Assembly: GCA_964613715.1 (NCBI GenBank) | Contig: CAZTJK010000005.1 | Span: 1 to 43,161 of the forward strand | Origin: an uncultured Candidatus Saccharibacteria bacterium | Lineage (GTDB): Bacteria; Patescibacteriota; Minisyncoccia; Phycocordibacterales; GWA1-40-21 | DNA length: 43,161 nucleotides | Direction: 5' to 3' | Part shown: piece after piece, positions 1-40,717 of the stretch | How the letters are laid out: each line of letters opens with the position of its first letter | Position numbering within the stretch: the stretch's first letter is position 1 | Made by a program: the position numbers and the translations under genes | Notes under the pieces: generated by a model | Databases searched by the model: none | Told to the model about the DNA's origin: nothing | What the model saw: the letters and a program-made list of their open reading frames with translations, nothing else

Positions 1-297
1 AAATTCGGTGAACTAGACATTATCGCTGAAATAGATGAAATGCTTCATTTTATTGAGGTAAAGTCGGTTTCACGTGAAATAGGGGAGAATGATTCACGTG
101 AAACAAGCCAGTACAGGCCAGAAGACAATGTCCATAGGGCAAAGCTAGAAAGAGTCACAAAGACTATTGAAATCTACTTAACGGAGAAAAGTATTTCACA
201 TGAAACTGAATGGCAAATTGATGTTATAACGGTCGAAATAGACAAAAAACAGCTTATTTCAAGGGTTTTTATGCTTGAAAACATTATTATTGAGTAA
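1..297 (+). CDS. yraN: YraN/UPF0102 family nuclease, 5'-truncated by window edge
   Basis: Frame 1 is open from base 1: KFGELDIIAEIDEMLHFIEVKS...RPEDNVHRAKLERV, matching the GE(I/L)DII...FVEVK PD-(D/E)XK motif of YraN; TAA at 295-297. Confidence 0.85.
   Translation, partial: KFGELDIIAEIDEMLHFIEVKSVSREIGENDSRETSQYRPEDNVHRAKLERVTKTIEIYLTEKSISHETEWQIDVITVEIDKKQLISRVFMLENIIIE
66..207. promoter_or_regulatory. Cluster of three parS-like palindromes inside yraN
   Basis: GGTTTCACGTGAAATA (66-81, 14/16), TGATTCACGTGAAACA (90-105, 15/16) and TATTTCACATGAAACT (192-207, 13/16) versus canonical TGTTTCACGTGAAACA. Confidence 0.75.
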
Positions 298-298
298 T

Positions 299-566
299 AA
301 AAAAACCGCCCATGAACTACTGAGCAAGTAGACAACGGACGGCGAAAGAAAATGTCTCGTGAGATTTCACTCCCTACACCTTGTGCGTTTTAAAATAAAA
401 TCTTAAAGCGGGTGAGGGAAGGAAAGCTATGAAATTTCACCAAACAAAGCTTTCAATTTTGAAGATGATCAGTCTTCGATGAAAGAACTCCTTGAAGTAT
501 GTTTAGGAGGACTGAAATAGCGAGTTGCGTTGACTATTTCTGTCTGATACTTCAATACTTTTGTCC
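299..566 (-). ncRNA. Candidate stand-alone structured noncoding RNA (~270 nt), unassigned
   Basis: TATAAT at 578-573, predicted TSS 566; helices 492-500/547-555, 514-520/534-540, 461-465/473-477, 422-428/448-454, 370-380/411-420; terminator stem 306-311/337-342 plus U7; no credible ORF on this strand. Confidence 0.55.
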
Positions 567-644
567 GATATGATTATACTCTAGATATAAAAGACAAGTA
601 AAGGACATAGTTGTTGATAACTTTAAAACTATCTAAAAGACAAT

Positions 645-680
645 AAAAAATGACGCTTTGGGTTTTATCCAAAGCGTCAT
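645..680 (-). terminator. Intrinsic terminator of the 690-1196 gene
   Basis: 12-bp stem ATGACGCTTTGG/CCAAAGCGTCAT followed by a U-tract on the minus strand. Confidence 0.85.
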
Positions 681-689
681 AATACGCCC

Positions 690-1196
690 TTAATGCTTGT
701 TTTTCTGAAAACACCAGACGACTTCGGCAGAGAACCTTTGCTGTAGCCTGCTTTCGCAGGAAATGCTCGTCAGCCACTTGGTCTTGCCATTGGTCTTCAG
801 GGAAAAGATGATCGGGGTTCCTTTCATACCCTTGATCGGCTCCATCGCCATGTGCACGACTTCCTGGTCAGGCTGGTCCTGATACTCTGTCCGGAGCCAG
901 GGCCCGTGACAAGGTTTGGCAGGGGAACCATTTCTTTCTCCGATACCGCGCAGCACTTCCTCAAGGGTAGCGCTGTCCTTCTTTCCGGTCAGATCCTTCG
1001 TGGTCATGAAAGCGAGCATGACCTGCTCATCTTTTTCAGGACATTCGATCGAACCACCATCGCGATCGAAAATATCCTGGACCGCGACCCCGAACATTAC
1101 CCCTGGAGCCTTCTGAAGGGCTGTTTTTAAAGCCCGAAAGCCCCCTGGAATTTTTAGACCCATCTCCGATGGGAGTACAGCCCTAGACTGAACCAT
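690..1196 (-). CDS. Hypothetical protein, Parcubacteria-type family (GPxLRxxYxDQP...MEPI...WL...VF); possible C-type-lectin-like C-terminus
   Basis: 168-aa ORF with AAGAGG SD, TTGACA-18-TGcTATAAA promoter and its own terminator. Confidence 0.7.
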   Translation of the reverse strand: MVQSRAVLPSEMGLKIPGGFRALKTALQKAPGVMFGVAVQDIFDRDGGSIECPEKDEQVMLAFMTTKDLTGKKDSATLEEVLRGIGERNGSPAKPCHGPWLRTEYQDQPDQEVVHMAMEPIKGMKGTPIIFSLKTNGKTKWLTSISCESRLQQRFSAEVVWCFQKNKH

Positions 1197-1283
1197 GCAA
1201 TACCTCTTTCTAGCGTTTTTACGCGAAAAATATGCTAAAGAACAAGGCAGTTTTATAGCATGCAGAATAGATCCATGTCAATA

Positions 1284-2054
1284 TTATTTGGATAATTCCA
1301 GGGAAACAGGGCAATGGTCGCTGCCCATGACTGAATCGAGAATATCGGCTTTTTTGACTTTTGCCTTCAAGTCGCCAGATACGAAGAAATAGTCGATTCT
1401 CCAGCCGATATTACGGTCCCGGGCATAGGTTTTCATGTCCCACCAGCTATAACGCTCGGTTTCATGCGCATGAAACAAGCGAAAGGTATCAATATAGCCC
1501 TTGGCAATGACTGCATCGATCCAAGCGCGTTCGATATCGAGAAATCCGGAAGTATTTTTATTTTCCTTCGGGTGCGCAAGATCAATTTCAGTATGGGCAG
1601 TATTCACATCGCCGCAAAAAACAACTTTGTGGCCTTTTTTCTGCAATTTCTCGATGAATTTCAGAAATTCCTCATAATAATGCATCTTGTACTTGAGGCG
1701 TTCCGGCCCGCCGCCGCCATTCGGAAAATAAACATTTAGAAGCACGAAATCCTTGAAATAGAGGATAAGGGTTCGGCCTTCGTCATCGAATTTCTTGATG
1801 CCAAGGCCGTATTCTACCTTTTCAGGCTTGATTTTCGTGAAGACAGCGACGCCGCTATAGCCTTTTTTTATTTTTGAATGATCGAAATACGAGAAATAGC
1901 CGGCAGGGGAACGCAGTTCTTCCGGCAGCTGTTCGGGATGTGCTTTGGTTTCCTGGAGACATAGGATATCCGGATCGAGGTCGAAAACAGCATTGAAAGC
2001 CCCTTTCTTGTAGACGGCGCGGATACCGTTGACGTTCCATGAAAGTAATTTCAT
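1284..2054 (-). CDS. xth: Exodeoxyribonuclease III (AP endonuclease)
   Basis: LSWNVNGIRA, LQETK, GDVNTAH, WRIDY, SDHCP motifs. Confidence 0.97.
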   Translation of the reverse strand: MKLLSWNVNGIRAVYKKGAFNAVFDLDPDILCLQETKAHPEQLPEELRSPAGYFSYFDHSKIKKGYSGVAVFTKIKPEKVEYGLGIKKFDDEGRTLILYFKDFVLLNVYFPNGGGGPERLKYKMHYYEEFLKFIEKLQKKGHKVVFCGDVNTAHTEIDLAHPKENKNTSGFLDIERAWIDAVIAKGYIDTFRLFHAHETERYSWWDMKTYARDRNIGWRIDYFFVSGDLKAKVKKADILDSVMGSDHCPVSLELSK

Positions 2055-2059
2055 ATCGA

Positions 2060-2090
2060 CGAGTATAGCACGACCAATATGCTATACTCG
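2060..2090. promoter_or_regulatory. Back-to-back divergent extended -10 promoters forming a perfect 11-bp inverted repeat
   Basis: CGAGTATAGCA-N9-TGCTATACTCG; each half is TGcTATACT; the minus copy lies 7 nt before the xth ATG. Confidence 0.7.
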
Positions 2091-2105
2091 GCTCATAGCA
2101 ACTTT

Positions 2106-2459
2106 ATGAAAACATTCATGAAATATAGTATTGCATCCCTCATGCTCGCCGGTGCACCATCCCTGGCACTTGCTCAGCGGTACATGATGTACAGTCCTGG
2201 CAGCTATGATAACTATTCGATCGGCTGGTTTCCGATGATACTGTTTGCCATCCTGCCGATTCTTTGGATCGGATTTTGCATCCTCATGTTCGTATTCTGG
2301 CTTTGCATACTCATCGATGCAATCAAGCATGCGCCGGAAAAGATGAAGCTCATCTGGGTAGTCGTTATCATATTTACGAATATCATCGGCGCGCTAATCT
2401 ATTATTTCGTAGAAAAGCGTCCGCGCAAGGTAAAAACGACAGAACGAAAAGAGGCCTAG
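2106..2459 (+). CDS. Small membrane protein with PLDc N-terminal-like (PLD_N) helical hairpin
   Basis: Signal-like N-terminus, then FVFWLCILIDAIK...KLIWVVVIIFTNIIGALIYYFV, the typical PLDc_N pattern; start uncertain (2106 or 2118). Confidence 0.7.
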   Translation: MKTFMKYSIASLMLAGAPSLALAQRYMMYSPGSYDNYSIGWFPMILFAILPILWIGFCILMFVFWLCILIDAIKHAPEKMKLIWVVVIIFTNIIGALIYYFVEKRPRKVKTTERKEA

Positions 2460-2475
2460 AATAAGAACTTCATGC

Positions 2476-2510
2476 AAAAGGGCGGGTTCGCGAAGCGAAC
2501 CCGCCCTTTT
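2476..2510. terminator. Bidirectional intrinsic terminator
   Basis: AAAAGGGCGGGTTCGC-GAA-GCGAACCCGCCCTTTT, 16-bp perfect stem between convergent genes. Confidence 0.9.
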
Positions 2511-2525
2511 GGTATGCCAGGCTAA

Positions 2526-3458
2526 TTATTTCCTGTTTTTGCCATGAAAATTCTTGTGAATGTCCCGCAAATGCTTATCGGTAACATGCGTATAGATCTG
2601 TGTCGTCGTGATATTGGCATGGCCGAGTATTGTCTGCACACTGCGCAGATCTGCCCCGTTTGACAAGAGATCGGTTGCAAATGCATGCCGAATGACATGC
2701 GGGGTTACCTTTTTCGAGATGCCGGCAATGGTTGCATAGCGTTTGACGATCCGTTCCACTGAACGGCGAGTCAGCCCTGCTGTAGTATCAGTAGAGCCGC
2801 GCGTTTCACCGCCGACCGGCACGAACAGGGCTTCGGACATATCCTTTCTGATTTTGAGATAATCGCCAACGGCGCGCTTGGCATCATCGGACAGGAATAC
2901 CACGCGGACTTTGCCACCCTTACCGCGAATGGAGAATTCGTCCGCATGGAGATCAAGGTCATTCGTAAGCGAACAAAGCTCGGAAACACGCAGGCCGGTT
3001 GAAAAGAGAAGCTCGAGTATCGCTTTGCCGCGGGCTTTCTTTTCCGGATCGGTTTCTGTATCAGGCGCTTTCAATAGGCGAGACAGTTCGGCCGGACTGA
3101 TAGTATCGATGATGCGCTCGCCGACTTTTGCAAGCTCGATATTGTCTGCTGGCAGCGAGCTGATGCCCCGACGTGCCAGGAATTTCAAGAATGTGCGTAG
3201 AGCGATGAGATAGTAGTTTTGGGTTTTCTTTTTCATGGTCTCGCCGGTCGCGCGGTTATTGCCTGCCGATTGGCGATTGAGCCACATGCGAAAATCGCGG
3301 ACAGCGTCATTGGTGATGTCTTCCGGCTTTTGCAATTTGGTCTGGCTCAAAAAAACAGATAGGTAATGGTCGTAATTTTCTATCGTGCGCAGTGCCCGGC
3401 CTTTTTCAATCTCGATATATTCAAGGAATTCGCGCTTCAGATCAGGGAGGGTTTTCAT
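2526..3458 (-). CDS. XerC/XerD-like tyrosine recombinase
   Basis: Catalytic set present: TGLRVSEL (R), GKGGK (K), HVIRH (HxxR), LGH, TTQIYT (Y); SAM-like N-domain; start MKTLPD supported by TGgTAGAAT 7 nt upstream. Confidence 0.93.
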   Translation of the reverse strand: MKTLPDLKREFLEYIEIEKGRALRTIENYDHYLSVFLSQTKLQKPEDITNDAVRDFRMWLNRQSAGNNRATGETMKKKTQNYYLIALRTFLKFLARRGISSLPADNIELAKVGERIIDTISPAELSRLLKAPDTETDPEKKARGKAILELLFSTGLRVSELCSLTNDLDLHADEFSIRGKGGKVRVVFLSDDAKRAVGDYLKIRKDMSEALFVPVGGETRGSTDTTAGLTRRSVERIVKRYATIAGISKKVTPHVIRHAFATDLLSNGADLRSVQTILGHANITTTQIYTHVTDKHLRDIHKNFHGKNRK

Positions 3459-3554
3459 CAAATCCATTCTACCATGTCGCACAATATATTCCGTACAGCC
3501 CAAGCAAACGGCTATCTCTTGCGTTTTCGAGAGAAATGTGCTAATCTTCAGCCT

Positions 3555-3818
3555 ATGTTAACGAAGACGAAAAAACAGAAAGTCATCAAGGAAGTGGCCC
3601 GCCACGACACCGATACCGGCTCCCCGGAAGTGCAGGTTGCCATCCTCTCCAAGAAAATCGAGGAATTGACGAAGCATTTGAAAAAGAATGCGAAAGACAA
3701 TCACTCCCGCCGCGGACTCATCGGCATGGTCGCCGACCGCAGAAAGCACCTGAAATACCTCGAAAAGCATAGCCCGAAAAAATACGAAGCGGTTACGAAA
3801 AAAGTCGGCCTGAAATAA
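3555..3818 (+). CDS. rpsO: 30S ribosomal protein S15
   Basis: DTGSPEVQVAIL...KDNHSRRGL motifs; ATG at 3555 is 7 nt after TGcTAATCT. Confidence 0.98.
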   Translation: MLTKTKKQKVIKEVARHDTDTGSPEVQVAILSKKIEELTKHLKKNAKDNHSRRGLIGMVADRRKHLKYLEKHSPKKYEAVTKKVGLK

Positions 3819-3846
3819 AAATTCGCTTCGAGAGAAGCGAATTTTT
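3817..3846 (+). terminator. rpsO terminator
   Basis: 13-bp stem with GAGA loop and U-tract. Confidence 0.85.
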
Positions 3847-3948
3847 ATTTCGAGTCATGAATCACGACTGAAGCCACGGGCTTGAGCCGTGATAGAATGG
3901 ATACTGGTCGATCGTTCCCTCTATTATCAATTTTTATTATTTCTTACT

Positions 3949-4473
3949 ATGAGTGTTGTAAAACATAAAGACCAGCGCGTCGGTATTTTCATCGATACGC
4001 AAAATTTGTATCATTCCGCGAAAAATCTATACGGCGGAAAAGTGAATTTTGGACAGGTGATCAATGACGCCCTTGATGGGCGCGTGCTTATCCGCGCGAC
4101 TGCATATGTGATCACGACCGAATCAGGCGATGAGAAGGGCTTCTTCGAAGCGCTCGGCAAAGTCGGCATCACGACAAAGACGAAAAACCTCCAAATCTTC
4201 GCGGGCGGCGCTAAAAAAGCCGACTGGGACGTGGGCATGGCGATCGACGCGATCGCGCTCTCGCCGAAACTCGATGCTGTGATCCTCGTCACGGGCGATG
4301 GCGACTTCGTGCCGCTTGTCGAATACCTGAAAGTGACACAAGGCTGCCAGGTGGAATGCGTTTCCTTCGGCAAATCAACTTCCTCGAAGCTTATCGATAC
4401 TGTCGATGGATTCATGGACCTTGATGATGATCCGCAGCGATACATGATCGGCGGCGGACGCAGACGCAGATAA
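3949..4473 (+). CDS. NYN domain (LabA/DUF88) protein
   Basis: IFIDTQNLY, KADWDVGMAID, LVTGDGDFVPLV motifs. Confidence 0.92.
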   Translation: MSVVKHKDQRVGIFIDTQNLYHSAKNLYGGKVNFGQVINDALDGRVLIRATAYVITTESGDEKGFFEALGKVGITTKTKNLQIFAGGAKKADWDVGMAIDAIALSPKLDAVILVTGDGDFVPLVEYLKVTQGCQVECVSFGKSTSSKLIDTVDGFMDLDDDPQRYMIGGGRRRR

Positions 4474-4508
4474 AAAGAATAGCCGGCCCAAACGGGTCGG
4501 CTATTTTT
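4472..4508. terminator. Bidirectional terminator
   Basis: AATAGCCGGCCC-AAAC-GGGTCGGCTATT flanked by A- and T-tracts. Confidence 0.85.
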
Positions 4509-4824
4509 ATTCTTCGCAGCCTATGACCTGATACGCAAGGAACTGATTGAAAAATCGTGGCTCTACAATCATGATCCGGGCATAGAACAGCATCTCTGCA
4601 GATTCGACATCCGGCTGATGCAGCAGGAGAAACGCATCCCAATGTGCTTCTTCACGCTCCACAATGAGCGAGACATCGTCCGGAGACTGCCGCTTCATCT
4701 GCTTCACCGAGAGCATGATATGCTCGAGCAGCATATCGAAAAAATCGTTGAGTATGAGCGAGTCCGCCTTTCGTTTCGGAGCCGCGAGCGCGTAATTGCG
4801 GAAAAGTACCGCGGTATCACTCAT
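4507..4824 (-). CDS. Hypothetical ~105-aa helical protein (probable distant paralog of 4925-5236)
   Basis: AGGAG/AAAGGA SD 6 nt before ATG 4824; TTTACA-16-TGcTATCAT promoter at ~4862-4889; terminator downstream. Confidence 0.65.
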   Translation of the reverse strand: MSDTAVLFRNYALAAPKRKADSLILNDFFDMLLEHIMLSVKQMKRQSPDDVSLIVEREEAHWDAFLLLHQPDVESAEMLFYARIMIVEPRFFNQFLAYQVIGCEE

Positions 4825-4890
4825 GCAATATCCTTTCACTCCTAAAATAACCTCTCGTGCCATGATAGCATCGGGCATTTTTTTGTAAAC

Positions 4891-4920
4891 AAAAAGCCGA
4901 CCCTGATACAGAATCGGCTT
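4891..4920 (-). terminator. Terminator between the two small minus-strand genes
   Basis: AAGCCGA/TCGGCTT stem followed by a U-tract on the minus strand. Confidence 0.7.
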
Positions 4921-4924
4921 GGCA

Positions 4925-5236
4925 CTACACTTCGGCATCCACCCAGTATTCGGCAAGATCCGCGCGCCGCTCGGTGACGATCATACCTTCAATCAAATGC
5001 TCGAAAGACAATACCGCGGGATCTTCAAGCACCATCTGCTTGCGAAATGCCTCCCAGGTATGGGCGGCATGTTCAATGATGGATACAGCGACCCGATGCT
5101 GTTCTTTTTGCGGAGAAAGATCTTTGTCGATTTTCTCCATAAATGTACGGAATGCCTCGAGTGAGGCTGCTTCGCTTGTCTTGTGCTCGATCGTTGTCAA
5201 ATGCCGGTACAATTGAGAGAGCAACTCAGCTGTCAT
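4925..5236 (-). CDS. Hypothetical 103-aa helical protein
   Basis: Strong SD AAGGAGGTG before ATG 5236; TTGACA at 5304-5309 (minus); own terminator. Confidence 0.7.
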   Translation of the reverse strand: MTAELLSQLYRHLTTIEHKTSEAASLEAFRTFMEKIDKDLSPQKEQHRVAVSIIEHAAHTWEAFRKQMVLEDPAVLSFEHLIEGMIVTERRADLAEYWVDAEV

Positions 5237-5348
5237 GATTCACCACCTCCTTTTCTTATTGGCTGCAGCTTCTGATGTCACTTATAGTATAGAAAAAATA
5301 ACTTGTCAACAATATGAAGAATAACGGCTGCATGGTATTTTTATAGCT

Positions 5349-7472
5349 ATGAATAAAAAAGAGTTCTCTATGGAGCTCGGCGGCAAAAAGCTCACGGCCG
5401 AATTCAACGATTGGACTGAAAATGCGCATGGATCGGTCGTATTGAAATACGGTGCAACCACAATTCTCGCAACCGCGGTCATGTCCAAAGAGCGGCATAC
5501 TGGTGGGGATTTCCTTCCACTCACGGTGGATTACGAGGAAAAATTCTACGCGACGGGCCAGATACTCGGCAGCAAGTATACACGGCGGGAAGGGAAGCCG
5601 TCCGATGAGGCGATCCTTTCAGGACGCATCGTCGACCGCACCATCAGACCGCTCTTTGACCAATGGATCAGGAACGAGGTTCAGGTTGTCATCACGACGC
5701 TTTCCATCGACCAGGATGATCCGGATGTCTTGTCAGTCATCGCCGCATCACTTGCGCTTTCCATCTCGAAAATTCCATGGAACGGACCCGTGAGTGCCGT
5801 ACGCATCGGCAAGCACAAAAATGACGGATTCCAGGTGAATCCGACCTATGTCGAGCGCGAAAACGAGGCGTATGAGATTGATCTCGTCTCATGCGGCAAG
5901 GATGGCAATATCAATATGATCGAGCTCTCCGGCGATGAGGCCCAGGAAGGAACTATTATCGACGCGCTCAAGGCAGCATCAGCCGAAATCGAAAAGATAA
6001 ACGCATGGCAGAAAAATATCATCGCCGAAATCGGCATGAAAAAAATCTCGATTCCTGAAATACCCGCGCCCGAATCCGTCGTTGCGCTTTTTGCCGAGGT
6101 AATCAAACCGAAACTCGAAAGCTATGTAATGAGCGGCATGCCCGGACATGGGAAAATAGAAGAGATTACCGAGGCATGGATGCTTATCGCCAAAGAAAAG
6201 CTTCCGGTAGATGATTTTGCATTTGCAGCAGCCTATATCGAAGAGAGAATCGACGTAATGATACACGAACAGGCGATACAGCATGGGAAGCGCGCTGATG
6301 GGCGAGGACTCGACGAGCTGCGCCCGCTTTTCGCCCAGGCTGGCGGCATCTCTCCGGTGCTCCATGGATCGGGTATCTTTTACCGCGGCGGCACGCATAT
6401 TCTTTCAGTGCTGACCCTTGGCGGACCAAAAGATGCACAGGTGATCGAGGGGCTTGAACACTCCGAACCGCCGAAGCGCTTCATGCACCACTATAATTTC
6501 CCTCCATTTTCGACCGGCGAAACCGGCAGGATGGGCGGCACAAACCGCCGCATGATCGGCCATGGCGCGCTTGCCGAAAAAGCGCTTCTGCCGATGATCC
6601 CAGACATGGAGGCATTTCCGTACACGATCCGCATTGTCTCCGAAGCGCTCGCGTCAAACGGCTCAACATCCATGGGAAGTGTCTGCGGCTCGACGCTCGC
6701 ATTGCTTGATGGCGGCGTACCGCTCAAAAAACCAGTGGCCGGCATCGCAAGCGGACTTATGTCAGACGAGAAAGGGGATTATAAGATTCTCACCGATATC
6801 CAGGGGCCGGAAGATCATTTTGGCGACATGGATTTCAAAGTCGCCGGCACGCGAGATGGCATTACCGCCATACAGATGGATATCAAGGTTGGCGGCATCC
6901 CGATACCGGTGCTTGGCGAAGCCTTTGAAAAAGCGAAAGCTGCCCGATTCAAAATTCTCGATGTCATCGCAAAGACTATCGATGCTCCGCGCACCGGACT
7001 TTCGGCAAATGCCCCGAAAATCATTACCCTTAAAATCAACCCGAGGCAGATCGGCGACGTGATCGGCTCGGGCGGCAAGACGATCAAGGCGATCAAGGAA
7101 AAAACCGGCGCCGATATCGATGTCGAAGACGACGGCACGGTCTACATCACTGGTAAGAACGGTTCCTCGGAAAAAGCCAAGGAAATCATCGAGCGCATGA
7201 CACATGAATATAAGGTGGGGGAACAGTTCCAGGGCAAGGTCGTGCGAATCGAAGCATTCGGCGCATTCGTGAATATCGGCGGTGATACCGACGGCCTCGT
7301 GCACATCTCCGAAATCGCGCCATTCCGCATTGAAACGGTGACGGATTATCTCCATGTTGGCGACATCGTGCCCGTCATCGTGCGGGAAATCGACGAACGC
7401 AAGCGAATCAACCTCTCCATCAAGGCGGCGAAGCCAGACTTGTTCAAGCAAAAACCGGATACACATGCTTGA
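5349..7472 (+). CDS. pnp: Polyribonucleotide nucleotidyltransferase (PNPase)
   Basis: Two RNase PH domains (PLTVDYEEK, HYNFPPFS, RREIGHG-like RRMIGHG, SNGSTSM, GDMDFKVAG), KH and S1 domains. Confidence 0.98.
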   Translation: MNKKEFSMELGGKKLTAEFNDWTENAHGSVVLKYGATTILATAVMSKERHTGGDFLPLTVDYEEKFYATGQILGSKYTRREGKPSDEAILSGRIVDRTIRPLFDQWIRNEVQVVITTLSIDQDDPDVLSVIAASLALSISKIPWNGPVSAVRIGKHKNDGFQVNPTYVERENEAYEIDLVSCGKDGNINMIELSGDEAQEGTIIDALKAASAEIEKINAWQKNIIAEIGMKKISIPEIPAPESVVALFAEVIKPKLESYVMSGMPGHGKIEEITEAWMLIAKEKLPVDDFAFAAAYIEERIDVMIHEQAIQHGKRADGRGLDELRPLFAQAGGISPVLHGSGIFYRGGTHILSVLTLGGPKDAQVIEGLEHSEPPKRFMHHYNFPPFSTGETGRMGGTNRRMIGHGALAEKALLPMIPDMEAFPYTIRIVSEALASNGSTSMGSVCGSTLALLDGGVPLKKPVAGIASGLMSDEKGDYKILTDIQGPEDHFGDMDFKVAGTRDGITAIQMDIKVGGIPIPVLGEAFEKAKAARFKILDVIAKTIDAPRTGLSANAPKIITLKINPRQIGDVIGSGGKTIKAIKEKTGADIDVEDDGTVYITGKNGSSEKAKEIIERMTHEYKVGEQFQGKVVRIEAFGAFVNIGGDTDGLVHISEIAPFRIETVTDYLHVGDIVPVIVREIDERKRINLSIKAAKPDLFKQKPDTHA

Positions 7473-22129: not shown

Positions 22130-24313
22130 ATGAAACGATTTTTCACAAAATCCGTTGCGCTTTTTTTGCTTGGCACGATCCTTGGAGGCCTCTTATCCGT
22201 TCATACTGCCTATGCCGGATCGAATCCGAACCTTGTCGGTACTGATTTATCCGGGGGAACAGCATCATCAAGTTACTCGTCAAACACCGGGAGCTTTTCA
22301 TTTGGAAAGGCTGCAGATTTAGGATTCGGAGTTGGTAACTTTATCGTCAATGGCGTTGCGCTTGCCGGAATCGCCACTGTTTTGTATCTAGTCTATGCGC
22401 TTGCAAGCCTCATCCTTGCATTGCTCGGCCTCATGTTTGATGGGGCATTGAATGTTTCATTTTACGGACTGCATAATTTCTTCGACAATCTCGGACCGGT
22501 CGCGACTATCTGGACGCTGATCCGGGATACGGTAAATGTCTGCTTTATATTCATGCTGCTCTATATTGCAATCAGCATGATTCTCGGCAGCATCGGCGTG
22601 AAAGCAAAATCGAATCTTGCAAGCGTACTTATCAGTGCGATTTTCGTTAATTTCAGCATGTTTTTCGCAAAAATCATCATTGATGCAGGAAATATTGTCG
22701 CTATCTCGATTTACAACAGCCTGGGCGGTGGCAATCTTGGCTGGAGCATTGCAGGACAACTTATGGATGGTTTCAATATAGGAGGGGTCATGAGTATTTT
22801 TTCAATATCTGGACAGACAAATATCATGATCAATTTGATCCTGCACCTTGTGCTTGTCGGCATCGCCTGCTATGTGTTCTTCAAAATAGCTGCAATTTTT
22901 ATAGGAAGGACTGTCATGCTTGTCATACACGTGGCCACGTCTCCAGTCGGATTCTTGAGAGTCGGCGCTATACCGTGGCTTGATGAATTGCGAGGCAAGT
23001 GGTGGGGATCATTCGTAAATCAGGTGATGGTGGCTCCACTTTTCATGCTGCTCATGCTCATATTCATGCGGTTCTTGTCTGTCGTTAATGTGGCCATTCA
23101 TCAGTCAACAAGTAGCATGACGTTTGCAGAACAAGCTGCTCCAGGAATTGATTTTGCTGGGTACCTTGCATACATGATGATCGCATTCCTGCTTTGGGAA
23201 GGCATGAAGATCGTGGAGAAAAGCAGCGGCAAGATCGGAGAAATCACCGGCAGTGTGCTGAACACGCTCACCTTTGCAGGTATTGCAGCTGCAACGGGCG
23301 GCGTAGGCATGCTTGGCCGGGCAGGAGGGCTTGTTGCTGGCGGCCTCGAACGGGCCGGCCTGACAAAAACAGCACAAGCAGTCGGTGGTTTTTCAAAAAC
23401 ACTGCGGGAAGTCCCATCCACAGCGAGTAAATTTGTCAAAGGCGAATACAAAGAGAAACCGGGGCTTGTCGGATTCCTCGGCAACAAAGCACGCGATTTC
23501 GGCTTCTCTGAAATCAAGAAAGCTACAGGCGGCGTGGTAAGCCCGAAGGGTATAGAAGATTTCATAAAGAAATCAAAGAGTGGGAACGAGGCAAATGTCA
23601 TGAAGGAGATGGAGAAGGCTGGGCCACAGAAGGATATTGACCGACAGACGCAACTTAAAGATATTGAACAAAATATTACCGAGCAGGCGAAACAGCGCCT
23701 TACGGCTGATTTCGGTTTTAAGGATGATCAGATCAAGGCTGCAAATGCGAGACAAAAAGAGCATGACAAGAATATTGTGGCCCTGAATGAAAGCCAGACG
23801 AAGCTACAGAAGGCCACTACGGACTTGGCATCGTCTATCGGTTCTGAAGAGAGCGTGACCAAAGCGAAAAAAGAATATGAGCAGGCCCAGAAAAATGCCG
23901 ATATTTCGAAAGGTAAGTTGACTACGGATATGCAAGCTATTTTGACGAAACAAGCTGAAGCAAAGGAAGCTGTAGCAAAAGAATTAAAAGTTGACCTACA
24001 AGGACTTAAGAGCGAGCAGGAAAAATTGAAACAAACCATCCGAGAGAAGACGGCAGCAAAAAATGTCTATATTAGCAATGTAGCCTCATACGGCCCAGTT
24101 CGCGGAATGCTAAGTACTGGTTTGACCAGTAAAGATCGCCAAAAACTGGTAGAAAAAATGAGGGCGCAGAAAGGGAAATATAACGCCGATAAAGAAAACG
24201 TGGCGAAGAATATTGTTAAAGCCTTGAAAGATGCCGGCATGGGAGATGCATTGAAAGAAGAAGGTGGTGGAGAGAAAAAGGAGGAGAAAAAAGGAGAGGA
24301 AGGGAAAAAATAG
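22130..24313 (+). CDS. VirB6/TrbL-like polytopic membrane protein with C-terminal coiled coil
   Basis: Multiple TMs, WTLIRDTVN, LISAIFVNFSMFFAKIIID, R.VML......SPVGF, WWGSF..Q...AP; position before prgI and virB4. Confidence 0.75.
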   Translation: MKRFFTKSVALFLLGTILGGLLSVHTAYAGSNPNLVGTDLSGGTASSSYSSNTGSFSFGKAADLGFGVGNFIVNGVALAGIATVLYLVYALASLILALLGLMFDGALNVSFYGLHNFFDNLGPVATIWTLIRDTVNVCFIFMLLYIAISMILGSIGVKAKSNLASVLISAIFVNFSMFFAKIIIDAGNIVAISIYNSLGGGNLGWSIAGQLMDGFNIGGVMSIFSISGQTNIMINLILHLVLVGIACYVFFKIAAIFIGRTVMLVIHVATSPVGFLRVGAIPWLDELRGKWWGSFVNQVMVAPLFMLLMLIFMRFLSVVNVAIHQSTSSMTFAEQAAPGIDFAGYLAYMMIAFLLWEGMKIVEKSSGKIGEITGSVLNTLTFAGIAAATGGVGMLGRAGGLVAGGLERAGLTKTAQAVGGFSKTLREVPSTASKFVKGEYKEKPGLVGFLGNKARDFGFSEIKKATGGVVSPKGIEDFIKKSKSGNEANVMKEMEKAGPQKDIDRQTQLKDIEQNITEQAKQRLTADFGFKDDQIKAANARQKEHDKNIVALNESQTKLQKATTDLASSIGSEESVTKAKKEYEQAQKNADISKGKLTTDMQAILTKQAEAKEAVAKELKVDLQGLKSEQEKLKQTIREKTAAKNVYISNVASYGPVRGMLSTGLTSKDRQKLVEKMRAQKGKYNADKENVAKNIVKALKDAGMGDALKEEGGGEKKEEKKGEEGKK

Positions 24314-24327
24314 ACTAAAAAATACAT

Positions 24328-25077
24328 ATGGATGATTCAATAACAAATGATCTCAAGCAACAGTACCAGAGCCTGCCGAAAGAATTGCAGCAGGCCATTG
24401 CTGATATCAATCTGCCGGCAAAGCTCAGTACTATCGTCAAGAACAATAAATTGATGATCGATCAGGCAGGCATACTTGAAACGGAAACAACGCTCGTCCT
24501 CTTCGGCCTTGAGCCACTCGAGAATTATGTCGATAATCTTGCGCGTGAGCTCGGTATGCCAAAAGACCGAGCACTGACTATTGCGAAAGATGCCGATGAG
24601 CTCATTTTTAAAGGCATCCGCGATGCGCTGCGGCAGGTAAATGAGGAGATGACAGAGGCAGAAAACGCCGAAGTGGCGCAGACCGAAGGACATCCGTCGA
24701 AAGAAGATATCCTCGCCGGCATCGAAAAGCCGCATGAGATTACTACAAGGGAAAATTCGGTATCGGTCAGTTCATTGCCGTCGAATAATAATGGCGTGCA
24801 GGGGACAGCGCCTGTTGTTACGTCAAAAATTGAAATGCAAAAGCCGCTCGTACCTGAAATGCGACCGGAAGAGATTTCCCTCGGCACGGTCATCAAGAAA
24901 CCGCAGCCGGCATCGCCGATTCCTGCAAGCGTTTCACCGCTCAAGAATATTGTTGAAACGAAAATGACAGAGACGGTTGCATTGCCAAAAAAGACTGTTG
25001 TGATCGAGGAAAAAACGAAGCTACCGCAAGCGAATGCGGCAAAACCTGCTGATCCGTATCGCGAATCAATAAGCTAA
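24328..25077 (+). CDS. Hypothetical protein with C-terminal DPYRE motif
   Basis: N-terminal helical domain (QYQSLPKELQQAI...ETETTLVLFGL), Pro-rich linker, ends ADPYRESIS. Confidence 0.75.
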   Translation: MDDSITNDLKQQYQSLPKELQQAIADINLPAKLSTIVKNNKLMIDQAGILETETTLVLFGLEPLENYVDNLARELGMPKDRALTIAKDADELIFKGIRDALRQVNEEMTEAENAEVAQTEGHPSKEDILAGIEKPHEITTRENSVSVSSLPSNNNGVQGTAPVVTSKIEMQKPLVPEMRPEEISLGTVIKKPQPASPIPASVSPLKNIVETKMTETVALPKKTVVIEEKTKLPQANAAKPADPYRESIS

Positions 25078-25089
25078 ATTAACTACAGG

Positions 25090-25521
25090 ATGCAATTCCA
25101 AGTACCACAATTCATTGAAGTAGAGGACCGGATTTTCGGGCCGCTGACGCTGCGGCAGTTCATTTACCTTGCCGGCGGGGCAGGGGCATCGGCTGTCGCC
25201 TATATCTACCTTCCTTCAAAGCTTATCGCTATTCCTATCATTCTCATTGTTGTCGCATTCTCGCTTGCGCTCGCATTTTACAAGACGAACGGCAAGGCAT
25301 TCATCGATGTGGTGCAGGCAGCCTTCTACTATGCCGTGGGCGGCAAGCTCTATATCTGGAAGAAAGTAGACAAGAAGCCCGAGCACAGCCTGACTGCCGA
25401 GGTGCAGAAAGCGAAATCCATGGTAAGCGTCCCGAAAATGTCCCAATCGAAGCTGAAAGATCTCACCTGGTCGCTCGACATCAAGGAAAGCCTCAATCCG
25501 GTCACCCGCGAGAACAAGTAG
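25090..25521 (+). CDS. prgI: PrgI family (VirB3-like) protein
   Basis: MQFQVPQFIEVEDRIFGPLTLRQF signature and two TMs. Confidence 0.88.
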   Translation: MQFQVPQFIEVEDRIFGPLTLRQFIYLAGGAGASAVAYIYLPSKLIAIPIILIVVAFSLALAFYKTNGKAFIDVVQAAFYYAVGGKLYIWKKVDKKPEHSLTAEVQKAKSMVSVPKMSQSKLKDLTWSLDIKESLNPVTRENK

Positions 25522-25560
25522 CCTTTCGAATCCGGCTGCTTCTCGTGTATAATAATCGAA

Positions 25561-26190
25561 ATGGCAGTTTCAAAAGCAACACAGGACTTTGTGCCGATCA
25601 AGGAGATCCGCGACGGTATCGTCATGCTCAAAGACGGCTCGATGCGCGCCATTGTCATGGCATCATCGGTGAACTTTGCCTTGAAGTCGCCCGAGGAGCA
25701 GCAGGCGATCATTATGCAGTTTCAAAGCTTTCTGAACGCGCTTGATTTCTCGATACAGGTATCCGTGCAGTCTCGCCAGCTCGACATACGCCCATATATT
25801 TCCATGCTTGAATCAAGATATAAAGACGAGCTCGGCGACCTGATGAAGATACAGATCCGCGAATATATCCAGTTCGTCAAGAATTTCGTCAGTCAGACGA
25901 ATATCATGACGAAGACATTTTTCGTCGTCATCCCGTTCTCGCCGGCAGTCATCAGCACGCAGGATAATCCGCTCGCGACGATCATGCAGAAGCAGAAGGG
26001 AACGACAGTGAAAGCATCGGATCATTTCGAGGAAAACCGCACGCAGCTCGAACAGCGCATCAGTTCTGTTTCCCAGGGCCTCACCCGCTGCGGGATCCGG
26101 AGCGTGCAGCTCGGCACTGAAGAGATTGTCGAGCTCTTCTACAAGACCTTCAACCCAGGCGACATGGAAAAGCCGATCATGCCGGCATAA
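25561..26190 (+). CDS. Conserved T4SS-cluster protein resembling the N-terminal (non-ATPase) part of VirB4/TraC
   Basis: SKATQDFVPIKEIRDG...SSVNFALKS.EEQ.AII...FLNALDF.IQ...SR.LDI; lies between prgI and the ATPase. Confidence 0.75.
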   Translation: MAVSKATQDFVPIKEIRDGIVMLKDGSMRAIVMASSVNFALKSPEEQQAIIMQFQSFLNALDFSIQVSVQSRQLDIRPYISMLESRYKDELGDLMKIQIREYIQFVKNFVSQTNIMTKTFFVVIPFSPAVISTQDNPLATIMQKQKGTTVKASDHFEENRTQLEQRISSVSQGLTRCGIRSVQLGTEEIVELFYKTFNPGDMEKPIMPA

Positions 26191-26201
26191 CAATCACCAT
26201 C

Positions 26202-28022
26202 ATGAGCTTTCTTACCGACATATTCAAAAAGAAAGAAAAGCAGGAGCAGCTGACGTCGTTCCTGCCACAGGAGATCTATGAATCCGGTGTTTTGGAATTG
26301 CAGGATATTATCGCGCCATCCGCGCTCAAAATTTCCCCGAAAGAATTATCTCTTGGCGAAAAAATCGTGCGTACCTTTTTCGTCATCTCATATCCACGCT
26401 TTTTGTCTGAGAGCTGGTTCTCGCCGATCATCAATCTCGACAAGGTATTCAATATTTCTGTATTCATCCATCCGATCGACACAGCAAAGATCCTACGCCA
26501 ATTCCAGAAAAAAGTAGCCGAGGTGCAGAGCCAGATCAATGCTCGCGAGAAAAAGGGCTTGGTGCGCGACCCAATGCTCGATACGGCATATCAGGATCTC
26601 GAGGGGCTGCGCGATAATCTCCAGCAAGCGCAAGAAAAGCTCTTTGATATCGGCCTCTATATCACGCTCTACGGCGACAGCGAGGATGAGCTTGATAAGG
26701 TGGAAGCGGAGGTGAAATCCATTCTCGAATCCCGCCTTATTTATATCAAGCCGGCTCTCTTCCAGCAGGAGCAGGGCTTCAAGAGCGTGCTGCCGATTGC
26801 AACTGATCTCCTCGAGGTACATTCGAAGCTCAATTCATCGCCGCTTTCCTCCATTTTCCCATTCGTATCATTCGACCTGACCTCCGACAAAGGCATTCTC
26901 TACGGCATCAATCGCCACAATGCATCCCTCGTGCTCTTTGACCGCTTCTCGCTTGAAAACTACAATTCGATTACCTTCGCAAAATCCGGTTCGGGCAAAT
27001 CCTACTGCACAAAGCTCGAGATCCTGCGCAGTCTCATGTTTGATACCGATGTCATCGTCATCGACCCGGAAAAGGAATATGAATTCCTCGCTGAAGCAAC
27101 CGGCGGCAAATCATTCGCGATCTCTCTCAATTCCTCAAGCCATATCAACCCGTTCGATTTGCCGGCACCAAAAGAAGATGAGTCATCCGCGGATGTCCTG
27201 CGCAGCAATATCATCAATCTCGTCGGCCTCTTCCGCATCATGCTCGGCGGACTGACTGCGGAGGAAGATGCGATCATCGACCGCGCGATTTCCGAAACGT
27301 ATGCGCTCAAAGACATCACGCCGGATTCTGATTTCAGCAATATCGAGCCGCCGCTTCTTTCCGACTTCGAGCTCGTGCTCTCCGGCATGAAAGGCGCAGA
27401 GGGAATCGTGCAGAAGCTTTCGAAATACACCCGCGGCACCTGGGCCGGGTTCCTGAACAAGCCAACAAATATCAATATCAATTACAAATTCATCGTCTTC
27501 TCCATCCGCGATATGGAAGACGAGCTCAAGCCGGTGGCCATGTACCTGATCACGCACTATATCTGGAATGCCATCCGCCGCGTGACAAAGAAGCGCCTCA
27601 TGGTCATCGACGAGGCATGGTGGATGATGAAATCCGAAGACACGGCGTCCTTCTTGTATTCACTCGCAAAACGCGGTCGCAAATACTATCTCGGCCTTGC
27701 GACCATTACCCAAGACGTCGAAGACTTCCTGAAATCCCCCTACGGCCTGCCGATCGTGACGAACTCGTCCATCCAAATCCTCCTAAAGCAGTCACCGACG
27801 GTCGTCGACAATCTTCAGAAGGTATTCAACCTGACAGACGAGGAGAAATATCTCCTTTTGGAATCGGATGTCGGCGAAGGTATATTCTTTGTCGGTCTCA
27901 AACATGTGGCCATCAAAATCATCGCCTCCTATACCGAGGACCAGATCATCACCTCCGATCCATCACAGCTTTTGAATATTCAGAAAGCGAAGGAGGAGCT
28001 GAAAATGACCCAGGGTCTCTAG
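26202..28022 (+). CDS. virB4: VirB4-like (TraC/DUF87) ATPase
   Basis: Walker A AKSGSGKS, VIVIDPEKEY, INPFD, Walker B MVIDEAW, KRGRKYYLG, TITQD, GEGIF. Confidence 0.9.
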   Translation: MSFLTDIFKKKEKQEQLTSFLPQEIYESGVLELQDIIAPSALKISPKELSLGEKIVRTFFVISYPRFLSESWFSPIINLDKVFNISVFIHPIDTAKILRQFQKKVAEVQSQINAREKKGLVRDPMLDTAYQDLEGLRDNLQQAQEKLFDIGLYITLYGDSEDELDKVEAEVKSILESRLIYIKPALFQQEQGFKSVLPIATDLLEVHSKLNSSPLSSIFPFVSFDLTSDKGILYGINRHNASLVLFDRFSLENYNSITFAKSGSGKSYCTKLEILRSLMFDTDVIVIDPEKEYEFLAEATGGKSFAISLNSSSHINPFDLPAPKEDESSADVLRSNIINLVGLFRIMLGGLTAEEDAIIDRAISETYALKDITPDSDFSNIEPPLLSDFELVLSGMKGAEGIVQKLSKYTRGTWAGFLNKPTNININYKFIVFSIRDMEDELKPVAMYLITHYIWNAIRRVTKKRLMVIDEAWWMMKSEDTASFLYSLAKRGRKYYLGLATITQDVEDFLKSPYGLPIVTNSSIQILLKQSPTVVDNLQKVFNLTDEEKYLLLESDVGEGIFFVGLKHVAIKIIASYTEDQIITSDPSQLLNIQKAKEELKMTQGL

Positions 28023-28083
28023 GCACCTTCTCTGTGGCTCTTTTGTGCACAGCAAGGAGCATTCATGGTATAATAAGCCTGAA

Positions 28084-29103
28084 ATGAGGACTGTTTTTCA
28101 AAGCATGATGGCATTGTTTCTCGTTGTTTTGCTGTTTTCTGCAACCGAAAACGCTGTGCAAGCCCAGACGGCGTCTATTTTCGACAGCGAGCTTATCGGC
28201 CTCTCCATTACCTACAGCCCGACAAGCCCGAAAGCGGGCGATACGGTCGATTTGTCATTGTCGGCATATTCCGGAAATCTGAACACCGCCAAAATCACCT
28301 GGTATGTCGACGGCATCGCGAAAAAGGAGGATGTCGGCGCGAAAACATTCGATATCCAGGCGAAAAATAACGGCGAAGCAACCGAGGTACGCGTGACTGC
28401 TGAAAGCGCCGATGGCATCGTGAGCGATGCATCGACCGAGATCATTCCTGCAGACCTCGACCTGGTCATCGAACCGCAGTCGTATACGCCGCCGTTTTAC
28501 AAAGGCAAAGCGCTTTTCGCCAATCAAGGCACCGTGCGCCTCATCGCTCTGCCAAACGTATTTGTCGCCGGTAAAAAGGCAAGCGCAAGCAGCCTGACCT
28601 TCCGATGGCAAAAAGATGGCACCTTACTTTCCGACAGTTCCGGCCGCGGCGCAAATACGCTGACGGTTACCGGTGTCGTGCCGATCCGCGATATCAATAT
28701 CACCGTGAGCGTCTTCGATGATAGCGGCCGCCAAGTGGCCGGTGCATCAAAAATACTCACCACGAATGATCCGAAAGTACTCTTCTACGAGAACAGCCCG
28801 CTCTACGGAATCCTCTACAACAAAACCGTGAGCGACAATTACTATCTCGGCGGGCGCGAAGAGCTTGATATCGTCGCCAAGCCATATTTCTTCGATTTCG
28901 CAGTGGATGCGGGCAGCGATGCAAGCTACAAATGGTCGGTCAATGGCAATGCGGTACCATCGAGCGGCAAGACAAATGAGCTCTTGCTCAAGCAGACGAG
29001 CCCAAACCTGAAAGGTACGGCGACCGTATCTCTCTCTGCGAGCAACCTTGTGCGAATATTCCAATTCGCCGATAATAGCTTTAATGTCGCCTTTGGCATT
29101 TAA
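28084..29103 (+). CDS. Secreted multi-Ig-like beta-sandwich protein
   Basis: Signal peptide; repeated beta-rich units with W-Y-V-D-G, W-Q-K-D-G and W-S-V-N-G Ig-type motifs; TGgTATAAT promoter upstream. Confidence 0.7.
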   Translation: MRTVFQSMMALFLVVLLFSATENAVQAQTASIFDSELIGLSITYSPTSPKAGDTVDLSLSAYSGNLNTAKITWYVDGIAKKEDVGAKTFDIQAKNNGEATEVRVTAESADGIVSDASTEIIPADLDLVIEPQSYTPPFYKGKALFANQGTVRLIALPNVFVAGKKASASSLTFRWQKDGTLLSDSSGRGANTLTVTGVVPIRDINITVSVFDDSGRQVAGASKILTTNDPKVLFYENSPLYGILYNKTVSDNYYLGGREELDIVAKPYFFDFAVDAGSDASYKWSVNGNAVPSSGKTNELLLKQTSPNLKGTATVSLSASNLVRIFQFADNSFNVAFGI

Positions 29104-29107
29104 TACC

Positions 29108-29983: not shown

Positions 29984-29984
29984 C

Positions 29985-33178: not shown

Positions 33179-33224
33179 AAAAATTCATTCGCGCCCGAAC
33201 ATCAGCATACTATAATTGAGCGAC

Positions 33225-34559
33225 ATGGTTGAACATAAAACATTGTGGAATAACGTCCTCTCGCAGATCGAGCTTGCTATCTCGAAAGCGAATTTCGGCA
33301 TGTGGTTCAAAGACACCCATATTACCAAGCAGGAAGACGGCGTAGTCTTCGTGGGCGTGCCAAATATCTTCGTGAAAGACTGGCTGTCGAACAAATATCA
33401 CAAGGATATCATGAAGCAGCTGCGCACCTTTGGAGAAAATATCCGCAATGTCGAATACGTGGTGGCGAAAATCGAGGCGAAAGCACCGGTGAAAGAGGCA
33501 CCAGTAAATGTAAACGAATTGCCGCTCGCCGATTTCTATGTCAACAAGGAGGACAATCTTAATCCACGCTATACGTTCAAGACATTCGTTGTCGGACCGT
33601 TCAACGAGCTCGCGCATGCGGCTTCCCAGGCGATCCTGAAGCGCACCGCAACCTATAATCCGCTCTTTATTTTCGGTTCCACCGGCCATGGCAAGACACA
33701 TCTGATCCAAGCGCTTGGCAATCAGGTCAAGGAAGACGATCCGTCGAAAAAGATCTATTATATGACCTCGGAGCGCTTTGCGAACGACTATCTCAACTCG
33801 CTCAACAGCGGCGAAATCAATATTTTCAAGGAAAAATACAAGAAATACGATGTTTTGATCATTGATGATATCCAGTTCCTTTCCGCAAAGACGAAGACGC
33901 AGGAGGAATTCTTTCATCTGTTCAATAGTTTCCATGATGTCGGCAAGCAGCTTATCTTTTCTTCGGACAAGCACCCGAATTTCATCGCCGATCTCGAAGA
34001 GCGTATCAAATCCCGCTTCAATGCGGGCATGATTCTCGAGATCCAAAAGCCTGATTTCGAATCCCGCATCCAGATTTTCAGGAAAAAAGCCCTCTTGATG
34101 AACCTGGCGCTCTCCGATGAGATGGTGGAATTCCTCGCATCGTCCGTCGAAGGGAATATTCGCGAGCTTGAGGGAATCCTCAACCTCATTCTCTGCCAAT
34201 CCCAACTGAAAAATAGGGAATTGAATATCAATGAGATCAAAGACTTGATCAAGAACACCTCGAAGCCGAAAAAGAGTCTGTCAGTGAAGGATGTGACGCG
34301 TGTTGTATCAGAGTTTTACGGCATTGAAGAATCAAGTATCTTTGAGAAGGGCCGTAAAAAGGAAGTGATTCTGCCCCGACAGGTTATTATGTACCTTCTT
34401 CGGGAGGATTTTGGCATCTCATTTCCGTCGATCGGGGATAAGGTAGGTAATAGGGATCATTCAACGGTTATTCACTCCTACGAGAAGATTAAAAATGACT
34501 TGAAAAGTAATTCAGAACTCACCCAGGAAATAAGCCACATACGCTCGATGTTGAAATGA
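33225..34559 (+). CDS. dnaA: Chromosomal replication initiator DnaA
   Basis: LNPRYTF..FVVG..N, YNPLFIFG.TGHGKTHL, LIIDDIQFL, EEFFHLFN, NIRELEG, RDHSTVIH; ATG 33225 is 8 nt after TATAAT. Confidence 0.98.
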   Translation: MVEHKTLWNNVLSQIELAISKANFGMWFKDTHITKQEDGVVFVGVPNIFVKDWLSNKYHKDIMKQLRTFGENIRNVEYVVAKIEAKAPVKEAPVNVNELPLADFYVNKEDNLNPRYTFKTFVVGPFNELAHAASQAILKRTATYNPLFIFGSTGHGKTHLIQALGNQVKEDDPSKKIYYMTSERFANDYLNSLNSGEINIFKEKYKKYDVLIIDDIQFLSAKTKTQEEFFHLFNSFHDVGKQLIFSSDKHPNFIADLEERIKSRFNAGMILEIQKPDFESRIQIFRKKALLMNLALSDEMVEFLASSVEGNIRELEGILNLILCQSQLKNRELNINEIKDLIKNTSKPKKSLSVKDVTRVVSEFYGIEESSIFEKGRKKEVILPRQVIMYLLREDFGISFPSIGDKVGNRDHSTVIHSYEKIKNDLKSNSELTQEISHIRSMLK

Positions 34560-34748
34560 TTGTGGAAAAGCTTGGGAAAAGATATGGAGAAAATTATACA
34601 CAATATGTTGAAACTGTATGGATAAAAATGAAACGATGTATTGTAGACATATTGTCCAGTCAGAAAAAGCTTTGAAATTGAAAAATAAACAGGAATAATA
34701 AGAATAAAAATAGATTCACATATCAACAAGGATAATAAAAATATTAGT
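34560..34748. other. Probable oriC (dnaA-dnaN intergenic)
   Basis: Perfect boxes TGTGGAAAA (34561-69) and TTATACACA (34594-602), near-match TATGGATAA (34617-25), followed by a very A-rich tract (AATAATAAGAATAAAAATAG). Confidence 0.8.
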
Positions 34749-40413: not shown

Positions 40414-40665
40414 TTAATATTCGTCTGAAGACATGCGGTAATCATCGAGCTCGTCCTCCTCTTCAAGGGACGGGTCATCCTCCGTGCCTTCCCCGGTATT
40501 TTCCTCGAATGCATCGAGCACACCGTCAGATATTACGCCGCCTTCTTTCGTCTCTTCTTCCTCTTCGCCTTCCTGCGGCGCTGCTGCCGGCGTTTCCTCG
40601 ACCTTCTTGTTCTTTTTTTCGTCCTTGGGACTTGGCTTTGCTTTCGGTTTTGGCATAACGCTCAT
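40414..40665 (-). CDS. Small low-complexity protein: Lys/Pro-rich N-terminus, highly acidic C-terminus
   Basis: MSVMPKPKAKPSPKDEKK...EEEDELDDYRMSSDEY; start 40665 or 40656. Confidence 0.65.
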   Translation of the reverse strand: MSVMPKPKAKPSPKDEKKNKKVEETPAAAPQEGEEEEETKEGGVISDGVLDAFEENTGEGTEDDPSLEEEDELDDYRMSSDEY

Positions 40666-40717
40666 ATTTTCCAAAATTGTATGAAAATTGCAAATAGTGG
40701 GGATTGTGGATAACGCC

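Follow-up and report, generated by a model that had tools for sequence, protein, structure and literature searches.

The window (the whole stretch of DNA analysed here, 43,161 nucleotides) begins inside a gene. Its first 297 positions (1..297, plus strand) constitute the 3' part of yraN, which encodes a UPF0102 protein (Pfam PF02021) with a PD-(D/E)xK-like fold; they specify residues 38-135 of the 135-aa protein P0001 together with the stop codon. Three parS-like palindromes, none assigned to a strand, are embedded in this part: site A at 66..81 (GGTTTCACGTGAAATA, 14/16 identical positions, 2 mismatches), site B at 90..105 (TGATTCACGTGAAACA, 15/16, 1 mismatch) and site C at 192..207 (TATTTCACATGAAACT, 13/16, 3 mismatches). 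An initial annotation had described these palindromes, with the same degrees of identity, as lying within 142 bp. A mismatch search of the entire window confirmed this description: exactly three matches to TGTTTCACGTGAAACA with at most 3 mismatches exist, and all of them are located in the first 207 bp. The mean for shuffled versions of the window is 0.12 such matches, and three were not reached in any of 100 shuffles. All three sites start at the third codon position of the frame-1 ORF that ends at 297. Translation of this ORF verified the previously reported single reading register and the peptides (S)VSREI, DSRET and ISHET for sites A, B and C, respectively. The first two sites lie just after the conserved E-V-K motif, as had also been stated, with the GAG GTA AAG codons of this motif (55..63, plus strand) immediately preceding site A.

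The common register is forced by a stop codon in one of the frames. In frame 0, parS reads TGT TTC ACG TGA, and since the motif is a palindrome, the stop is encountered on both strands. Two frames are open, namely T GTT TCA CGT GAA ACA (V-S-R-E-T) and xTG TTT CAC GTG AAA CAx (F-H-V-K-Q/H). Coding sites are limited to these two registers, both of which are used, because the third one carries TGA.

The full-length YraN of the source organism (P0001) was found on a 2,950-bp Logan contig (L098) from a rock metagenome, which overlaps the window without mismatch and extends 2,474 bp further to the left. Two additional parS-like sites, each with 2 mismatches, are present in this extension: TTTTTCACGTGAAACT (L098:2114-2129), 360 bp left of window position 1 and 235 bp before the yraN ATG, and TGTTTCATGTGAAAAA (L098:2301-2316), 173 bp left of window position 1 and 48 bp before the ATG. 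In total, the source organism thus has five sites in 570 bp, compared with 0.01 expected. To the left of the spacer sites, L098 carries two tRNA-Arg genes, a tRNA-Gly gene and the divergent CCA-adding-enzyme gene cca (L098:3-1493), the last of which contains no parS-like site. The original placement of the cluster in the yraN coding sequence is therefore correct for the three sites inside the gene; it does not describe the full extent of the cluster, which is truncated by the window, continues upstream of yraN in the source organism and reaches into the tRNA spacer and cca in relatives. None of the five known sites is a perfect 16/16 match. Site B is the best of them and site C the weakest; given its three mismatches, site C is the one among A, B and C for which binding by ParB is least certain. 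Sites with 3 mismatches were classed as degenerate in a study of C. glutamicum (PMC7083940).

On the other side of yraN, a 168-aa ORF directly downstream (690-1196, minus strand) has no Pfam match and was seen only on L002 and L003, contigs that belong to the same organism. Most relatives have tRNA genes following yraN, but the region 298-690 is devoid of them.

As marker of the replication origin we used dnaA (33216..34559, plus strand; Pfam DnaA_N, Bac_DnaA and Bac_DnaA_C), which is preceded by jag, yidC, rnpA and rpmH and followed by dnaN. Three DnaA-box-like 9-mers, each with 1 mismatch, are situated in the dnaA-dnaN spacer (34561..34625, no strand assigned) and represent a candidate oriC, so that the distance of about 34.5 kb to oriC given earlier holds. 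The parS cluster itself lies 33 kb from dnaA. Similar distances were observed in related genomes. On contig CAYZNH010000002.1, dnaA (36.8 kb) follows yraN (about 4.7 kb) at a distance of 32 kb. On the 606,401-bp contig_80216 (ERZ25039512; locus L312), the distance from yraN (18.75 kb) to dnaA (59.85 kb) is 41 kb, or about 7% of the contig. In the latter locus, one site precedes yraN by 87 bp and three lie inside the gene, at +173, +197 and +302. These three fill the slots of the window sites; the counterpart of site B has an identical offset.

Two further features of the origin region were recorded. Genes reminiscent of a type IV secretion or conjugation system form a block (22130-31235) between the parS cluster and the origin, with a local shift of GC skew; it comprises genes for a PrgI-family protein, a TraG/VirB4-like ATPase and a T4SS pilin-like protein, as well as several large ORFs without Pfam match. 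Beyond the origin, a YebC/TACO1 gene (40414-41248, minus strand) is apparently split into a 176-aa ORF, consisting of the N-terminal domain and the first third of the second domain, and an overlapping 129-aa ORF in another frame that has no Pfam match. This could reflect a frameshift or an assembly error.

To our knowledge, the YraN/UPF0102 family is biochemically uncharacterised and its nuclease function is a prediction. Full-length P0001 scores 71.2 bits against PF02021 (cut-off 23.6), while the fragment encoded in the window alone scores 41 bits. Residues G40, E41, D43, E56, V57 and K58, which make up the GE.D...EVK core, are invariant in 113 homologues. An AF2 model of P0001 (pLDDT 86) finds its best PDB match in the UPF0102 structure 3FOV (E 3e-8, TM 0.81 on target), followed by the nuclease domains of Hjc, HincII and SPARDA. 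The protein accordingly combines a PF02021 score above the gathering value with a GE.D...EVK core on a restriction-endonuclease-like fold, as is proper to YraN. In the model, the site A peptide is placed at the end of a beta strand entering a loop, the site B peptide in the least confident, variable-length loop (pLDDT below 50 for residues 69-72) and the site C peptide in the loop preceding the last beta hairpin. YraN thus appears to bear the motif where its fold is least likely to be disturbed, and the peptides would be tolerated in loops.

We wondered how far this arrangement extends among relatives. A search with a profile built from four YraN proteins yielded 80 loci of different Parcubacteria/Paceibacteria species, with protein identities of 41-55%; together with the three relatives found first and the source contig they form a set of 84 loci. 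The survey covered the surroundings of yraN and of dnaA; in other parts of the genomes there may be additional, even stronger parS clusters. A zone reaching from 300 bp before yraN to 100 bp beyond it holds at least one site in 74 of the 80 loci. Here the density is 3.05 sites per kb, as compared with 0.26 per kb in 499 kb of flanking DNA. Almost no sites occur downstream of yraN, and a second cloud is seen 0.6-2.5 kb upstream. When a wider zone is considered, at least one site is found in 81 of the 84 loci, with a median of 4 and a maximum of 16. In seven loci, a 16/16 match without any mismatch precedes yraN by 35-125 bp.

The common gene order is cca (on the minus strand), tRNA genes, sites, yraN and again tRNA genes. 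Upstream sites are distributed among cca (93), DNA outside long ORFs (84) and other ORFs (35). A cca gene was detected in 64 of the 84 loci, and the 93 sites within it are in frame, mostly in the V-S-x-E-T register. Inside yraN, sites fall into four slots in the 84 orthologues: FL(V/M)K(H/Q) near the N-terminus (33 genes), slot A with VSRE just after EVK (33 of 84), the slot of site B with VSxET in the loop of variable length (about 28) and slot C with VSxET before EWQ (16). The yraN of the window fills the last three, that is A, B and C.

Several individual loci deserve mention. One relative has seven parS-like sites inside cca (L066:848-1691). In another, the yraN start codon lies within the parS-like palindrome TTTCACATGAAA, which reads F-H-M-K (L005:9882-9897), and similar cases occur in L021, L031, L066, L072 and L083; ParB binding at such a palindrome could overlap with initiation of yraN translation or transcription. 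A further relative (L304:1-6402) shares with the window (1-7472) genes for PNPase, NYN, S15, a xer-type integrase and ExoIII along with cca and yraN. Its cca-tRNA-yraN block is inverted relative to the other genes, and a tyrosine recombinase gene adjoins the block in both L304 and the window.

The placement of sites around gene starts raises the question of whether the palindromes are rather operators for another DNA-binding protein, either a transcription factor or a ParB-like repressor of yraN, cca or the tRNA genes, with no centromere role. Sites flank and overlap promoter and start regions; a palindrome encloses the start codon of many yraN genes, and the divergent cca-yraN spacer is filled with such sites. 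Some ParB homologues, such as KorB, do act as regulators, and the Parcubacteria ParBs described below, which have no ParA-binding motif, would also suit this explanation. However, many sites lie deep in coding sequences, from hundreds of bp to 3 kb away from promoters, their origin-proximal position is conserved, and agreement with the pan-bacterial ParB site extends to positions 2-4 and 13-15 of the motif. We therefore regard a purely regulatory function as improbable, with the reservation that regulatory and centromere roles are not mutually exclusive.

It could be argued that the match to parS is a by-product of YraN needing V-S-R-E-T-like peptides. In support of this argument, conservation of S59, V60 and S61 reaches 90% or more in the 113 homologues. 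Since the closest relatives among metagenome contigs are only 46-51% identical, codon resampling was employed in place of a classical dS comparison. Each protein sequence of 83 yraN genes was kept fixed while synonymous codons were drawn from local or pooled usage in 500 trials. At up to 3 mismatches, 112 sites were observed, whereas resampled genes contained 8.0 +/- 2.6 and never more than 18; the corresponding numbers were 46 and 1.5 when up to 2 mismatches were allowed and 7 and 0.16 when no more than 1 was. Eight sites in about 33 kb still exceed the expectation for random DNA, which speaks for some contribution of the peptides, yet the observed count is 14 times the resampled one. For the yraN of the window itself, 3 sites were observed and 0.12 expected under the codon usage of the window (GTT 13%, TCA 17%, CGT 10%); none of 5,000 trials reached three (P(>=3) <1/5000). 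The excess of 112 sites over 8 implies that selection acts on the DNA itself, and the codons of yraN are chosen for the DNA motif.

Codon alignment of the 84 yraN genes reveals which codons are affected. In site columns, valine is encoded by GTT in 61 of 72 cases (background 0.32), serine by TCA in 34 of 62 (background 0.19) and arginine by CGT in 25 of 46 (background 0.17), while glutamate is GAA in 35 of 38. Columns under sites are the strongest codon-bias outliers of the gene, with GTT, TCA and CGT over-used at site A. Control valine columns elsewhere in yraN show background-like usage, so that rare codons are picked specifically at sites and no global skew to GTT, TCA and CGT exists. The only other xSRET peptide encoded in the window, in a PBP gene, is written ACA AGC AGA GAA ACT, giving ACAAGCAGAGAAACT, which matches parS at 7/16 positions. 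The synonymous codons of relatives, proposed earlier as a check, are evidently not free to vary at the sites. A by-product of protein sequence is difficult to reconcile also with the approximately 84 upstream sites outside long ORFs, which include perfect 16/16 matches, with the 93 sites in another gene, cca, and with the position of site B in a loop of variable length. A protein-driven origin of the motif, contradicted by resampling of both the 83 genes and the window gene, was thus rejected and is in our opinion scarcely credible.

The identity of the motif was determined in a manner that avoids circularity. Only the central 8-mer TCACGTGA served as seed, leaving the outer positions unselected. 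In the 84 loci, 70 seeds are located in the cluster zone and 3 outside. On the left of the 70 seeds, the outer positions are G (86%), T (90%) and T (96%), and on the right A (91%), A (91%) and C (69%), with weaker T and A at the extreme ends. These unselected flanks reproduce canonical parS, and the motif is, as far as its sequence tells, a canonical ParB site; the initial identification of the 16-mer as the ParB-binding consensus is supported accordingly. Taken one by one, the features of a chromosomal parS are present as follows: a 16-bp inverted repeat matching tGTTtCAcGTGaAACa (in the window sites, in the 16/16 sites of seven relatives and in the flanks), non-random clustering near the origin, and DNA conserved beyond coding need.

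Noc-binding sites (NBS) of Firmicutes are likewise palindromes, bound by a paralogue of ParB. Their consensus is ATTTCCCGGGAAAT with a CCCGGG core. This core differs from the one found here, which is CACGTG or CACATG in all sites; CCCGGG is absent, and the NBS reading was discarded.

Since every 16-mer can form a short hairpin, the sites might also act in yraN mRNA by affecting its stability or translation. CACGTG is, furthermore, a typical palindrome of type II restriction enzymes, and the sites might be targets of a restriction-modification system. Conserved RNA structure would, however, show compensatory changes, whereas the identical primary sequence recurs at all sites and in all species, and sites occur in both transcription orientations and in untranscribed spacers. 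As for restriction, conservation extends 5 bp past CACGTG on each side, and restriction sites are scattered or avoided genome-wide rather than clustered at one locus. Both proposals were rejected on grounds of recurrence, orientation, extended conservation and clustering at a single locus, and we consider them very improbable.

A centromere calls for a ParB protein. No parB was detected in the 43-kb window. The GERRxRA regular expression and phmmer, queried with Spo0J and with a ParB from Parcubacteria, revealed none in approximately 800 kb (660-800 kb) of related yraN and dnaA loci. None was present within 4-10 kb of yraN in related loci, and ParB is thus not linked to yraN. No assembly with both ParB and the yraN cluster was found across the matches of YraN and ParB protein searches. 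Scanning of species genomes with a generic ParB profile, which ranks hits by similarity to Thermus ParB, returned only non-CPR phyla.

Patescibacteria parB genes were found with a DNA-level pattern of the GERRxRA box in which the GAA and AGA codons were fixed. It detected four loci, assigned to Dojkabacteria, Saccharimonadia, 'Patescibacteria group' and, by an automatic label, 'Saccharibacteria', all of which encode canonical ParB (E-values 1e-44 to 1e-60 against Spo0J). Homologues of the ParB from the 'Saccharibacteria'-labelled locus number more than 8,000. The best 120 of them (P0121-P0240) contain ParB_N and HTH_ParB and most also ParB_C, and the sources named by NCBI include Tagabacteria, Kaiserbacteria, Niyogibacteria, Parcubacteria group and Patescibacteria group. 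Judging from these proteins, canonical ParB is widespread in Parcubacteria as a clade. Among the same best 120 homologues, the recognition-helix motif GKSR..V.N.LRLL is conserved in 105. GKSR and Q are specificity residues of ParB and Noc, respectively; the Parcubacteria proteins, unlike Noc, have the GKSR motif of the ParB type and not the Noc-type Q.

The N-terminal ParA-binding motif (L/F/I)G(K/R)G(L/F/I), as defined in PMC12704722, was found in none of the best 120 homologues. In the one parB locus inspected (L300:4051-5103), the gene has a recombinase gene on one side and relA/spoT-topA-dprA on the other, and parA is not among its neighbours. Further Parcubacteria parB loci are L234 and L269. 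Parcubacteria ParBs look like the orphan ParBs of PMC12704722, with which they share the ParB-CTPase fold, the HTH and mostly the C-terminal domain along with the missing ParA-binding motif. The main text of that paper makes no mention of Patescibacteria or CPR. Because the 120 proteins are without this motif, a classical role in ParA-driven segregation is uncertain.

Taken together, the palindromes are probably genuine and functional chromosomal parS sites (probability roughly 0.8), the three in the window representing the right-hand part of a compact centromere with five or more sites within about 570 bp, some 33 kb from oriC. This centromere most likely spans the tRNA-yraN spacer and the coding sequence of yraN; that ParB binds there we infer from the motif. 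The earlier proposal that YraN has such peptides because its DNA doubles as a centromere gains support from codon resampling, from the canonical form of the motif, from its proximity to the origin and from the wide occurrence of canonical ParB among Parcubacteria.

The sites would serve as loading sites for the ParB CTPase clamp. ParB dimers would recognise the 16-bp inverted repeat through their helix-turn-helix, bind CTP, close into a clamp and slide onto flanking DNA. The partition complex built in this way may mark the origin region for segregation, for SMC loading or for both. Sites in coding DNA would have to be written in a stop-free frame, and YraN would host the V-S-x-E-T version in surface loops. 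Selection on the DNA would then fix codons that are otherwise rare in the genome, namely GTT, TCA and CGT.

It has long been established that parS sites occur near the origin and inside genes, as in spo0J of B. subtilis. The parS in spo0J, which we take to be TGTTCCACGTGAAACA, would be read as N-V-P-R-E-T and so use the frame found here for VSRET; a Spo0J protein sequence with NVPRET matched PDB entries 6sdk and 5noc. The ParB (Spo0J) parS of the B. subtilis and Thermus type, with consensus TGTTNCACGTGAAACA, is a 16-bp repeat identical to the one described here, including the tolerated variation at position 5, and is likewise found in multiple copies near the origin, some of them inside coding sequences. 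Three differences from B. subtilis are apparent. The sites of Parcubacteria are unlinked to parB, which is lacking both in the 43-kb origin window and within 4-10 kb of yraN. Their packing is much tighter, with 5 sites in 570 bp and a maximum of 16 in 3.5 kb. Finally, the slots that they occupy in the two host genes stay the same throughout a radiation of about class rank.

In C. glutamicum, ten parS sites are spread over 35 kb at 73 kb from oriC, nine of them intergenic and one in a coding sequence, and the cluster is the zone of ParB nucleation and SMC loading (PMC7083940). A single cluster of B. subtilis-type 16-mers located tens of kb from oriC is common to both cases; in contrast to the 35-kb cluster, many sites are intragenic here and the cluster spans 0.6-3.5 kb. 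What is said here about the distribution of parS in general draws on PMC7333895, PMC7083940 and common background.

A wider interpretation may be put forward tentatively, and we think it unlikely to hold. Parcubacteria (Paceibacteria) might keep their whole centromere as a compact, clade-wide module, largely contained in cca, yraN and the tRNA spacer, unlinked to parB and served by an orphan ParB without ParA-binding peptide. As part of the same tentative interpretation, yraN as a persistent host is perhaps not accidental, and YraN could act at the partition complex or be regulated by it. Such a system would be ParA-independent and perhaps used for SMC loading only.

In a full-text literature search, no paper was found that combines parS and ParB with Patescibacteria/CPR or links parS to yraN. 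As far as this search shows, the present analysis offers the first sequence-level picture of a CPR centromere. What sets the case apart from known systems is the lineage, the density of sites, their fixed slots in two host genes, the lack of a nearby parB and the orphan type of ParB. The parS cluster of the cca-tRNA-yraN region could act as an origin-side landmark for orienting and checking metagenome assemblies of Parcubacteria. It also represents an unusually clean natural case of dual coding, in which a protein-binding DNA element dictates codons, and probably loop peptides, in two unrelated genes. For the biology of these organisms, an orphan ParB raises the question of what use tiny cells make of ParB if it does not bind ParA.
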